25,088 nucleotides of DNA from contig JBHLON010000043.1 in the NCBI GenBank assembly GCA_048940445.1, forward strand, positions 1 to 25,088. The letters run 5' to 3'. A model generated the notes under the pieces. It made no database searches and was not told the DNA's origin. It worked only from the letters and a program-made list of their open reading frames with translations. Shown in pieces: positions 15,811-19,601 of this stretch. Both the position numbers and the translations under genes were made by a program. How positions within the stretch are numbered: the first letter of the stretch is position 1; each line of letters starts with the position of its first letter. The stretch comes from Promethearchaeota archaeon. GTDB lineage: Archaea; Asgardarchaeota; Lokiarchaeia; Sigyniarchaeales; SOKP01.

Positions 15811-16073
15811 AACTACAATTAGTCTTGTTTTATATTTGAATATTTTATAATTAACAAATTAAAATCATTCTTTTATTTGATTTAAAATATGATAATTGGT
15901 TTTCCTTTGGGATTTAATTCAAAGCTCTCTTTTTCTCGTTGATTATGGCTAACTATCGAATTATTTATAATAAACAATAGATAAAATAATAGTAGAACTT
16001 AATATCGTAAAAAAATGGGAATACTATTATCCCAATACTATTTCAATAAAAAAGTAGAACTAAAAAAAATATA

Positions 16074-16574
16074 TTATAGATGAAAATCCATTTCAATGTG
16101 GCATATTTCTGCTGTTTGAAGCCGATTTTTGGAAATATGAGGATCAATTCCTCGAGCGTATGAGATTGCTCCTGTTAATATACCACCAACGGGACAGGCT
16201 GTATTTCCCTCGAGATCATACCCTCCAATTCTTTTAGGGCAAATTAAGCATTTTTGCACAACTACTTTTACATTTTCATTAGATACTTCTACATCTAAAT
16301 CTTCAGCGAGATTAATAACTGTCATTAAAGAATTAATTAATTGCTCATCGCTGTCTTTAACATTCACAACTTTATTATCTAACATTGCCTTCATAAGCTC
16401 TCTTCCTATCCAAATGCTTAATGAATCCATAGCATCCTGAGTGGAAACACCAAAATCTTTATTTAAAATAAAGTCTCTTGTTCTTATTAAACCATAACCT
16501 AATCCAATTATTGTTCTATTTAGATAATGTGACTCATTTTTCTTATCTTTTCTTAAACTTTTAAATATTCTCAA
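16074..16574 (-). CDS. V4R/MetOD1-like (Bet3-related fold) Cys-containing domain protein
   Basis: WIGREL helix, VVVQKCLIC, TACPVGGILTGAI and terminal EICHIEMDF strand. The TTG start overlaps the upstream stop (TTGA) and follows GAGGAG. Confidence 0.7.
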   Translation of the reverse strand: MRIFKSLRKDKKNESHYLNRTIIGLGYGLIRTRDFILNKDFGVSTQDAMDSLSIWIGRELMKAMLDNKVVNVKDSDEQLINSLMTVINLAEDLDVEVSNENVKVVVQKCLICPKRIGGYDLEGNTACPVGGILTGAISYARGIDPHISKNRLQTAEICHIEMDFHL

Positions 16575-17158
16575 TAGATATCTCCTCTTAAGTTAATATT
16601 TAAATCATTAAAATTAGATTTCTCCTTCTCATATCTTATCTTTTCTTTACTTATAATGCCTCTTTCAACGTATTTATCAGTTATCTTTAAAAGAGAATCT
16701 TGATCGATTTTTCTGTTTAAAGCTTTTTCTAAACCACTGAGTTTTTGCAATAATACTGCTACACTAATTCTATTAAATTTTGCTATTTGAAGTATTATCT
16801 GTTTCTCAAGGACATTAGGAAATTGTTGCTCCTTTATATAATCTAAATCATAATTGGAACTCAATATTAATTTTTCTTCTGAAGACATTTTGTCAAAGAA
16901 ATCAGAATTTATTGGTTCTCCAGGAATATGGTTGTTTTGCGTCTTATACTCTCTTCTTTCTAATATATTGTCAATCGATTCTATTCCCTTTACTTCGTAA
17001 TTTCTATCTACATATATAATTAATGATTGGTTACAATGTTCTATCAAAAATTGAACTGGAAACCTTTCAGATTGTTCTATAAAATCCCTATTCAAATCAA
17101 GAACTATCTGTTGATTACATATTGGACAAATAGCTTTTGAAGTAATGTTCTGAGGCAT
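16571..17158 (-). CDS. Zn-ribbon-like N-terminal domain + winged-helix-like C-terminal domain shared with the adjacent GTPase
   Basis: CPIC...FP...HC...IYVDRNYEVKG N-terminus; residues 82-167 align without gaps to residues 335-420 of the 451-aa protein. Confidence 0.8.
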   Translation of the reverse strand: MPQNITSKAICPICNQQIVLDLNRDFIEQSERFPVQFLIEHCNQSLIIYVDRNYEVKGIESIDNILERREYKTQNNHIPGEPINSDFFDKMSSEEKLILSSNYDLDYIKEQQFPNVLEKQIILQIAKFNRISVAVLLQKLSGLEKALNRKIDQDSLLKITDKYVERGIISKEKIRYEKEKSNFNDLNINLRGDIY

Positions 17159-17249
17159 TTACGACACTATTAATTATATAACTATTTGATTATTAATTTA
17201 AATAGTATAGAAACTGTTAAAGGAATAGTGAGAATACTTATATTTAAAT

Positions 17250-18605
17250 CTAATATTTTGAATAATTATCTTTTTTCTGTATTATTTTTAAGTTTTTAAA
17301 GGATTCAAGATCTCTATCAAACTTTAAATATTGCTGTTTCACTTGACCTTTGTGAACATATTTTTCAATTATTTTTAAAATAATATTTCTATCAATAGTT
17401 CGATTTAATGCTTTTTCTAAAGGAGTTAGTTTGCTGATTAATACTGCTAAACTAATTTCCTTATATTTAGCAATACTATTAATTATACTTTTCTCTAATA
17501 CATTTGGAAAATCATCATCTTTTATAGATTTACAATCATTATTGCATATAAATATTATTCTCTCATCTTCAGTTAGATCCTTAAGAAAATTGTCAGTTAT
17601 AGGCACAGCGGTTATTCTCTTGCCATAATCGCGAAAAAGTTGATCAGTTAGATATCGTAAAACTACTTCTATACCTTCTCCTGTCAATATGGAGGTTTCA
17701 AAGAAGGTACACTCATATTCTAAAGCTAATTTTTCTGCTTTTTCTTTTATGTGTTCTCTACTTCTTCCAAGATCAATTTTATTACCTACAATTAGATAGA
17801 GAATATCTTTGTTATCAATGAATTGACGTGCTTCTGCTATCCAATCTTCGATTTTGTCCAGAGTTTCTTCTCTTGAGTAATCGAACATAATTAATATAGC
17901 ACTAGCATAATTAAAAAAGTACTTTCGCACTTTACCAAAACTTTTAAGACTTGACAAATCAAAAAAGTTGATTATACATTTATCCCCACTTTCTATTTCA
18001 ACTTGTTTTTCTATTAAAGACACACCTATGGTAGGATAATAGTATTCGATGAAATCATTACTACAAATCTTACGTACAAAAGCAGATTTTCCTACAGCTT
18101 CAGACCCAATTATCAATACATTTTTGCTTTCTGAGTTTAAAATTAATTTAGCTTCTTCATCTATTTTTGGAAAACTGCATGGAACTTCATGTTGACTTAA
18201 AATTAAAGATATTTTATCTGCGATGATATGAGTATATGGTACGTACAAATCTAAATTAGAATAATTATTCATGATTAACACTAACAAAGCAGCTGTATTT
18301 TCACCTAATTGAATATAGAATAATCGGAAATTATCCATATTGAAAGATCCACTTCCAATTTCTGACTGGGTTAGTCTTTTTATCCTATTTAGAGTTTGAT
18401 CTAAGAGACTTGTTATTCCACCGATTAACTCATCATCAAATTTCTTTACTGATTTTTTAGCAATTATAAAACCATCAAAATCAATAACTAGAACTGCTAA
18501 TAAATCTGGTATTGTTTGTATGAAATCATCTAATATCGTTTGTATATTGGTCGATGTACTCATAATCCCCGTTACCTCGAGTATTGATCTTATATAAATA
18601 TTCAT
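17250..18605 (-). CDS. Roadblock/LC7 + Rab-like small GTPase + winged-helix-like fusion protein
   Basis: Roadblock pattern LLAVLVIDFDGFIIA; G1 GSEAVGKS, G2 YPTIGV, degenerate G3 DLSSL, G4 GNKID and G5 ETSIL. The true start may be ATG18563. Confidence 0.88.
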   Translation of the reverse strand: MNIYIRSILEVTGIMSTSTNIQTILDDFIQTIPDLLAVLVIDFDGFIIAKKSVKKFDDELIGGITSLLDQTLNRIKRLTQSEIGSGSFNMDNFRLFYIQLGENTAALLVLIMNNYSNLDLYVPYTHIIADKISLILSQHEVPCSFPKIDEEAKLILNSESKNVLIIGSEAVGKSAFVRKICSNDFIEYYYPTIGVSLIEKQVEIESGDKCIINFFDLSSLKSFGKVRKYFFNYASAILIMFDYSREETLDKIEDWIAEARQFIDNKDILYLIVGNKIDLGRSREHIKEKAEKLALEYECTFFETSILTGEGIEVVLRYLTDQLFRDYGKRITAVPITDNFLKDLTEDERIIFICNNDCKSIKDDDFPNVLEKSIINSIAKYKEISLAVLISKLTPLEKALNRTIDRNIILKIIEKYVHKGQVKQQYLKFDRDLESFKNLKIIQKKDNYSKY

Positions 18606-18911
18606 AATGCTATTTATTAAATTTTAACATTTTATTATATTTATTTCATAAAATAAAGATGAAGAATTTACTTATTAATCGATTTTCACTAATAATATTG
18701 CCACAGATGCTTTATTTATTAAATTTAATTTAGATTTAATACTATATATTCACATTTTTTATGAAATAGATTAAAATCAAATGTTTCATTTTGCGCTGAT
18801 TAATAGTAAAAATGTCAAATTATTATGATAATTCATCTTAAATTAAAAAAAAATATAAAAATCTCAATATACTACTATCGAATATAATACAAATTAAAAG
18901 TAGACAGGAAA

Positions 18912-19601
18912 TTGAAAAAAAAATATAAAATAATCCTTGTAATAGCACTGATAAATCTTACTTTGTTTTCTATAAACACAAACATTAATGTTAAGGCACA
19001 AACTACCACTTATTCTATAGCTATCCATAATAATGAAGAGTATATCTGGGAAATCACTCTATTAGATGCGAGTACTTTTACGAGGGTTTTGGGATATGAA
19101 CCTAATTACCAAGTTGGAGATAGAATTCGGGTTATTATCGATACTGTAGAAGATCATGATTATTTTTGGTTCGTATCTGCATACTTTTGGGATTATGGTG
19201 CTGATTGGAGCCAGCAAGGTACGTTTAAACAAATGGCTGTTAGAAAAACTGCATATGAATATAATGATTCTATTTTTCTTCCCGTTCCTATTGCGGATTA
19301 CCTTGCAGCTGTACAGACTTATTTCGAACCAGAATACACTGCTGACGGTAATAAACTTTCAACAATTCAAAGAGCTCAAACAGATAGGGATTATTTACAT
19401 GAAAGAATATATAACGACAAAGGTGTTCTTATTACAGAAATTCTTTATGAATATCCTATTTTAAGACCATTCATAAAGGTGGAAGCAACTTTTGGTACGA
19501 TTCCAATGGGAATCTACTTTATTGGATTTATGATTGTTGCAATTGCATCCATAGCGGTTGTAATTTCGAAAAGAAAGAAGCTATCTATAAATAATTTTTA
19601 A
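18912..19601 (+). CDS. Secreted/surface protein with signal peptide and C-terminal membrane anchor
   Basis: MKKKYK + hydrophobic stretch + VKA; C-terminal IPMG + TM helix + KRKK. Confidence 0.85.
   Translation: MKKKYKIILVIALINLTLFSINTNINVKAQTTTYSIAIHNNEEYIWEITLLDASTFTRVLGYEPNYQVGDRIRVIIDTVEDHDYFWFVSAYFWDYGADWSQQGTFKQMAVRKTAYEYNDSIFLPVPIADYLAAVQTYFEPEYTADGNKLSTIQRAQTDRDYLHERIYNDKGVLITEILYEYPILRPFIKVEATFGTIPMGIYFIGFMIVAIASIAVVISKRKKLSINNF

Follow-up and report, generated by a model that had tools for sequence, protein, structure and literature searches.

The question raised by this locus is why two neighbouring proteins with quite different N-terminal parts should share the same C-terminal region. 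The window, that is the whole stretch of DNA analysed (25,088 nt; contig JBHLON010000043.1 of a Promethearchaeota archaeon, assembly GCA_048940445.1), contains three minus-strand genes, arranged head to tail, that encode a Ras-family GTPase fusion, a protein in which a zinc ribbon precedes the region in question (Zn-wH, for winged helix) and a small protein with four invariant cysteines (Cys4). The region shared by the first two is an undescribed winged-helix (wH) family within a mobile three-gene GTPase cassette, and the observation itself is real. A search of the literature, which is not proof of absence, found no description of the wH module, of the Roadblock (RB)-GTPase-wH architecture or of the cassette.

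Residues 335-420 of the 451-amino acid (aa) open reading frame (ORF) of the GTPase fusion (17603-17346, minus strand) align with residues 82-167 of the 195-aa Zn-wH ORF (16915-16658, minus strand) without a gap and with 44 identities in 86 positions; the first-pass annotation of the sequence had given these coordinates and this count, and both were reproduced. When the second segment was shuffled 20,000 times a mean of 6.7 identities was obtained (standard deviation 2.5), with a maximum of 20. BLASTP of the two whole proteins gave E 4e-29, and profile-profile comparison of the two orthologue families with hhalign gave a probability of 99.9% and E 5e-34. The DNA of the two segments is identical at 172 of 258 positions (67%), falling to 49 of 86 (57%) at third codon positions, and both paralogues have orthologues in other genomes; the duplication is therefore old and not an artefact of assembly, as had been claimed from the divergence of the nucleotide sequences. 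The duplicated domain had been put at ~86 aa, and in this the length has to be corrected: the homologous unit comprises residues 331-451 of the GTPase ORF and 79-195 of the Zn-wH protein, ~118 aa with no internal gap. Both BLASTP and hhalign carried the homology upstream of the module, pairing helix alpha5 of the GTPase with the last strand of the zinc domain, and this was rejected as over-extension since the secondary structures of the models differ there. The description of the two proteins as otherwise unrelated holds, the N-terminal parts being a Roadblock-like domain plus Ras-family GTPase in one and a Cys/His zinc domain in the other. There is no third copy of the wH module in this genome.

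It had also been proposed that the shared region is a winged helix, and two independent AlphaFold2 (AF2) models bore this out. Copy 1 was modelled alone (m4d5586e98ea3) from a 33-sequence alignment, with a mean predicted local distance difference test score (pLDDT) of 78, above 90 in the core and below 50 in the tail, while the model of the whole Zn-wH protein (m463f25159e9a; 32 homologues) had a pLDDT of 82.5 and a predicted template modelling score of 0.71. In both, an N-terminal extension made up of two short helices, a strand and a helix leads into a core with the order helix, short strand, helix, helix, long helix, strand, which is followed by a poorly modelled tail of ~25 residues. The core elements of copy 1 are H39-51, E53-55, H56-62/64-70, H76-88 and E92-96, and copy 2 has the same elements. 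The third strand of the sheet (E20-24) comes from the N-terminal extension, and there is no beta-hairpin wing, a single strand following the last helix at the point where the proteins of family f31 end. A pattern common to the tails of both paralogues, basic-F/Y ... F ... I ... basic-GD-I/V, lies at or close to the C-terminus and would fit a docking peptide of short length or an amphipathic helix. A winged helix with an N-terminal strand/helix extension and a conserved tail is thus the description of the shared region supported by the models.

With both models an exhaustive VIA structure search gave winged helices for all of its leading matches, and of the 50 matches shown most were of this kind (Z 5.3-8.9). 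The top match in each case was 8fw5_C, chain C of GATOR1, with Z 7.8 and 8.9 and a root-mean-square deviation (rmsd) of 2.4-2.6 Å over 71-72 residues that include the N-terminal extension; at 400 residues the chain fits NPRL2 or NPRL3. The yeast SEA complex chain 8adl_S scored 6.7 and 7.5, and further matches at Z 6-7.6 were PerR, Fur, Zur, the cullin and APC2 WHB domains, Stn1, RPA32, TFE-alpha and Cdc6/Orc. These scores have to be read with the caveat that unrelated arrangements commonly give Z below 8, and the lead of GATOR1 over the next unrelated matches was 0.5-0.9 Z; judged on the models, GATOR1 would be the closest analogue only and the match is indecisive. Nothing singles out an ESCRT-II-like wH, one of the options in the first-pass annotation: the ESCRT-II chain 1u5t_B ranked 36th with Z 6.4 for one model and was absent from the matches listed for the other, and there was no ESCRT-II match in Pfam. 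Foldseek against the PDB found nothing at E below 0.05 with either model, the best matches including wH domains, and in the ESM Atlas the whole Zn-wH protein scored 0.81 or lower with template modelling scores (TM) of 0.42 or lower, which is chance level. The 33-sequence wH profile found no PDB chain, and at E up to 1 Pfam NPR2/NPR3 did not match either of the two window proteins or 10 Zn-wH homologues. The module is not covered by any family of Pfam, NCBIfam or PADLOC, and the same three collections gave none for the zinc domain or for the third protein of the cassette. Neither of the outcomes named in the first-pass annotation as refuting, a fold other than wH or a well-known Pfam family, was therefore obtained.

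Table 1. Coordinates of the cassette and of the features encoded within it (positions in the window)
Feature	Coordinates	Strand	Remarks
Stretch missing from closest relatives	15811..18911		three genes and two AT-rich spacers
Cys4 gene, probably V4R/TRAPPC3-like fold	16074..16574	minus	166 aa
Zn-ribbon+wH gene	16571..17158	minus	195 aa
N-terminal zinc domain	16925..17158	minus	residues 1-78; five strands and one helix (model)
wH module copy 2	16574..16924	minus	residues 79-195; core ~16634-16819, tail ~16574-16639
GTPase fusion gene	17250..18605	minus	451-aa ORF; order Roadblock-like N-domain, Ras-family GTPase, wH module
Roadblock-like N-terminal region	18156..18563	minus	residues 15-150; identity weakly supported
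Ras-family GTPase domain	17640..18119	minus	Pfam Ras E 3.8e-29, residues 163-322
wH module copy 1	17253..17615	minus	residues 331-451; core ~17322-17507, tail ~17253-17327

The distribution of the module was followed with a profile search of 1.84 billion representative proteins, which gave 54 matches. Nearly all of these are proteins of 130-230 aa that carry the module C-terminally. A full-length GTPase fusion of 433 aa and a GTPase fragment of 270 aa are also among the matches, and the few longer members have no recognisable extra domain. Partner domains, the listing of which was suggested in the first-pass annotation as a check, include a single one detectable with Pfam, the GTPase. All matches with a named source are from Asgard archaea (Hermod-, Thor-, Prometh- and Hodarchaeota metagenome-assembled genomes), and within the phylum the module was found in 41 of 400 genomes (~10%). 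Members of the family usually have an N-terminal zinc domain ahead of the wH module, and this Zn-ribbon+wH arrangement is regarded as the ancestral form of the family. The 13 orthologues of the Zn-wH protein are 166-195 aa long; in the family alignment Cys11, Cys14 and His41 of the zinc domain are invariant, and Cys42, which members from this order have, gives way to a second His in family f31.

The Zn-wH gene is tightly coupled to the gene downstream of it. The Cys4 family was likewise found in 41 of the same 400 genomes and the two families co-occur in 33, in every one of which (33/33) the genes adjoin with the wH gene directly upstream; in the window the TTG start of the Cys4 gene overlaps the TGA stop of the Zn-wH gene. 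Cys109, Cys112, Cys127 and Cys158 of the Cys4 protein are invariant in 25 orthologues. A structure search of the ESM Atlas with this protein gave TM 0.57-0.66 to clusters of V4R, 4-vinyl-reductase (4VR) and MJ0207, and a feature search scored 0.92 against a Thor cluster with a partial TRAPP annotation; these results are no more than a lead. The Pfam models for V4R (PF02830) and TRAPP (PF04051) matched none of 25 family members at E up to 5, genome-wide scans with V4R and TRAPP profiles did not pick up the Cys4 gene, and the family profile found no PDB chain. On the structural comparison, a V4R/TRAPPC3-like fold is probable for the Cys4 protein, which is called V4R-like below. Two other genes of this genome have sub-threshold V4R matches (E 7e-6 and 4e-5) and adjoin small-GTPase genes (L044 on contig C59 and L045 on contig C3 of the genome, G000); one has two Rab-like GTPases and a thioredoxin-like gene as its neighbours, and the other is bordered by a GTPase fusion of 336 aa and a GTPase of 179 aa. 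Linkage of V4R and GTPase genes may be general in this genome. Comparison of the Cys4 family with these two V4R-like proteins by hhalign gave probabilities of 0.2% and 6%, neither of them significant, and sequence does not place the family in the V4R superfamily.

The GTPase fusion probably begins at Met15 (position 18563), giving 437 aa, since the database form is 437 aa long and orthologues begin there; with this start the residue numbers of the first-pass annotation are 14 too high, and its alignment stands as given. Eleven orthologues of the fusion are 420-433 aa long. Sub-threshold matches of the N-domain were to MAPKK1_Int (E 0.062) and, in an orthologue, to Robl_LC7 (E 0.2); no sequence relative was found in the PDB, and the domain is strongly conserved across the fusion orthologues. 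From its Pfam match the GTPase domain is assigned to the Ras family. Motifs G1 (GSEAVGKS), G2 (Thr) and G4 (NKID) are present and invariant in 13 orthologues. G3 (17946-17960) reads DLSS and not DxxG, as it does in nine other fusion orthologues, with DLSG in L042 and DLGG in L011 and L043; from this pattern it follows that the glycine of DxxG was lost within the fusion clade while G1, G2 and G4 were kept.

The arrangement of GTPase genes around the Zn-wH/V4R-like pair varies. At nine f31 loci a plain small GTPase of 170-180 aa lies directly upstream of the pair. The Roadblock-like/GTPase/wH fusion lies upstream of the pair in the window and in G217, G234, G211 and G197, and downstream of it in G191, G218, G270 and G271. 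In G271 the fusion is followed by another V4R-like paralogue, which is more diverged (L043, 5293-5784), so that the gene order is Zn-wH, V4R-like, GTPase-wH, V4R-like. Orthology of the f31 and fusion cassette GTPases was considered and rejected: this genome has at least 50 small-GTPase paralogues that match the f31 cassette GTPase at E below 1e-5, and the window's own GTPase ranks 34th of 50 among them. Several of those paralogues sit in larger fusion proteins of 330-645 aa.

A maximum-likelihood tree of the module was rooted on f31. All seven GTPase-fused copies of the module form one clade (support 98/97), which nests inside the Zn-wH clade of this order, and the single nested clade indicates one duplication and fusion followed by long retention. 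It is shown in this way that, in an ancestor of two genera of this family, a copy of the module was appended C-terminally to the cassette's own GTPase by one duplication. Conserved positions have changed little since: 24 are conserved and identical in both paralogue groups, among them PN.LEK, IS, KA.NR.ID, KY and G, and one is conserved but different.

The three genes also travel together. The closest relatives (G248, G250 and G268; L046, L047 and L048) have an amidase 76-77% identical to that of the window and keep the flanking gene order on both sides, with all three cassette genes missing and the amidase gene separated by ~210 bp from the homologue of 18912-19601; the contig of G268 ends soon after the junction. 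In G234 (L049), G217 (L050) and G270 (L051) the neighbours of the cassette match neither those of the window nor one another. The cassette was present in 4 of 42 genomes of the genus, many of the rest being 99-100% complete. The precise insertion or deletion, the unrelated contexts and the occurrence in 4 of 42 genomes mean that the three genes were gained, lost and moved together, and on comparative sequence evidence the cassette has been relocated, or else transferred, as one unit. It is flanked by an imperfect direct repeat of 37 nt and 73% identity (15831-15867 and 18743-18779), which may be due to chance in such AT-rich DNA; the left copy resembles the intergenic sequence at the empty site of the relatives. 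A clean target-site duplication was looked for and rejected, the imperfect 37-nt repeat being all that was found and the alignment with the empty site uninformative. A regulatory palindrome upstream of the operon was also rejected, there being short AT-rich inverted repeats only.

What the GTPase gains from the module can be approached from the partner that carried it before. Heterodimerisation or complex assembly, which was among the options in the first-pass annotation, is the role favoured by the context. The wH module is native to the Asgard-specific Zn-ribbon+wH protein, the gene for which is always coupled to the downstream Cys4 gene in genomes with both families. Both copies keep PNVLEK, LEKALNRxID and KYVxxG and, with the same conserved motifs, would probably bind the same ligand, the ancestral one. 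The copy borne by the GTPase would then hold the GTPase in a complex of the coupled Zn-wH and V4R-like proteins, a reading that is put forward tentatively, at a little short of even chances. Two geometries can be envisaged: the two wH modules might pair with each other in the manner of the paralogous Npr2/Npr3 C-lobes, or each might dock on one protomer of a V4R-like dimer. In either case the partners would act as a regulator of the GTPase, i.e. a GEF (guanine nucleotide exchange factor) or GAP (GTPase-activating protein), or as its effector. A more ambitious form of the same idea, and quite unlikely, is a self-contained mobile Asgard GTPase switch in which the V4R-like and Zn-wH proteins are the dedicated GEF or GAP and the paired wH modules the archaeal counterpart, possibly the forerunner, of the Npr2/Npr3 C-lobe heterodimer. 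If true, this would be the first gene-linked GTPase-regulator pairing of the TRAPP/GATOR type in Asgard archaea.

Comparison with known systems shows how far such a reading can be carried. The C-lobes of Npr2 and Npr3 heterodimerise (PMC9646525) and the C-termini of NPRL2/3 are predicted to be repeated winged helix-turn-helix domains (PMC3747258). The likeness of the cassette to NPRL2/NPRL3 (GATOR1/SEACIT) is that these are the best structural match of both wH copies, extension included, that longin/Roadblock-type domains and C-terminal wH units occur in proteins working on small GTPases, and that two paralogous C-lobes pair in that system (PMC9646525, PMC3747258). However, there is no sequence similarity, the Z-scores are within about 1 of those of unrelated wH proteins, the wH modules are here on the GTPase itself and a Zn-ribbon protein and not on two longin proteins, and no arginine finger or GAP activity is known for the cassette. 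Liu et al. described NPRL2-like proteins in Asgard archaea and an operon of Roadblock, Rab-like GTPase and DENN genes (bioRxiv 10.1101/2020.10.19.343400). For TRAPPC3/Bet3 and V4R the resemblance lies in the 160-170 aa of the Cys4 family and its four invariant cysteines, like those of the Zn site of Thor-TRAPPC3 and PoxR, the crystal structure of Thor-TRAPPC3 being a Zn-binding homodimer (PMC10933270). The linkage of the Cys4 gene to small-GTPase genes also recalls the functional link of TRAPP to Rab1, whereas the Pfam models and the profile search of the PDB miss the Cys4 protein and the cassette has no longin subunits. MglA/MglB operons and the Rag GTPases have in common with the cassette a Ras-like GTPase beside or fused to a Roadblock-type domain and accompanied by dedicated partner genes. 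They differ in that the Zn-wH and V4R-like partners are unrelated to MglB and RomRX, the Roadblock match being sub-threshold, and in that the order is RB-GTPase-wH here and GTPase-RB in the Rags. Protein-binding winged helices (cullin WHB, APC2 WHB, Stn1/RPA32 and ESCRT-II) share the core fold (Z 6.2-7.3, rmsd 1.5-2.6 Å, 56-62 residues) but leave the N-terminal extension uncovered, share no sequence and have another domain context.

Several observations weigh against a complex held together by the modules. All structural matches have Z below 9 and may reflect just a common arrangement, and the DNA-binding wH proteins PerR, Fur and Zur are within about 1 Z unit of the best match. The wH core is basic in most g1/g12 copies (isoelectric point (pI) 9-10, net charge +4 to +8), which would suit nucleic-acid binding as well. 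The probable assignment of the Cys4 protein to V4R/TRAPPC3 comes from the Atlas lead and the Cys4 pattern. Finally, several genomes of the order have the Zn-wH/V4R-like pair with no GTPase gene within ~5 kb, and the function of the pair therefore needs no neighbouring GTPase gene.

The main rival is an output on DNA or RNA, in which the Zn-wH protein is a transcription factor, the V4R-like protein its small-molecule sensor subunit and the copy on the GTPase makes binding dependent on GTP or GDP. The result would be a transcription factor under GTPase control, as was also among the first-pass options; this is unlikely, if far from negligible. Besides the basic core of pI 9-10 and the occurrence of the pair away from GTPase genes, it draws on the many DNA-binding wH matches (PerR with Z 7.3/7.6, Fur, Zur, MecI and TFE-alpha). 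Archaeal TFE-alpha combines a Zn-ribbon with a wH, and the same pairing is seen here. In PoxR and other bacterial regulators, V4R domains serve to sense ligands (PMC10933270). However, the helix in the recognition position (model residues 76-88) consists mostly of conserved hydrophobics (I, L, I, KYV), with Asp or Glu at its exposed positions in the Zn-wH copies, the wing is missing, and the f31 cores are weakly basic (net +1 to +3). Nor does the DNA upstream of the operon offer more than the short AT-rich inverted repeats, and the recruitment of GTPase genes beside the pair in several forms is a better fit to a GTPase partner. A decidedly improbable alternative is that the wH or the tail is a localisation module, sending both proteins to the same membrane or other structure with no direct contact between them, the tail taking the place of the lipid anchor that eukaryotic small GTPases have. 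The conserved tail of ~25 aa, ending in GD[IV] in both paralogues and modelled as a low-confidence helix, would suit such a role, as would the basic core, and DEP domains are wH variants that can bind membranes. Members of f3 and f31 lack the tail, yet have kept the wH core and the gene linkage; the absence of DEP domains among the top 50 structural matches is inconclusive. The patchiness of the cassette (4 of 42 genomes in a genus with many others 99-100% complete) and its mobility as a precise three-gene indel in four unrelated contexts also raise the very improbable case of an accessory module of the conflict or defence type, in which the wH recognises a shared effector or nucleic acid of foreign origin. 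However, PADLOC models matched none of the three proteins, searches of these for effector domains such as nucleases or toxins found nothing, and the genes around the cassette in the window are of an ordinary metabolic kind.

The tentative reading of the module as the element that holds the GTPase with its partners has some practical value. Asgard genomes contain dozens of small GTPases, many of them orphans, and the cassette names likely partners for one of these. Tran et al. (2024) described RB-GTPase fusions and TRAPPC3-like proteins and found that the GTPase genes of MK-D1 are generally outside operons with Roadblock, longin or TRAPPC3 genes (PMC10933270); partners are therefore hard to predict, and the cassette is an exception. 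That the GTPase acquired a copy of the wH module of its neighbour points towards a physical association, and the three proteins (437, 195 and 166 aa) make a concrete small set for the biochemistry of Asgard GTPase regulation. These considerations apply to ~10% of the sampled Asgard genomes, the fraction with the cassette, and the link to TRAPP and GATOR is structural and weak.

The zinc domain was also met with in other combinations. A variant of ~360 aa in three genomes (L039, L040 and L041 in G137, G135 and G138) has the same Zn domain and wH with an insert of ~170 aa between them, and no V4R-like gene adjoins it. The insert gave a weak histone-fold-like match (Bromo_TP_like, E 0.002) that is below the cut-off. 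Another protein, of 281-296 aa, has just the N-terminal zinc domain in common (L033, 7439-8329; L034, 6674-7519), and its gene lies ~0.3-1.3 kb away from the Zn-wH/V4R-like pair in two genomes lacking the GTPase.

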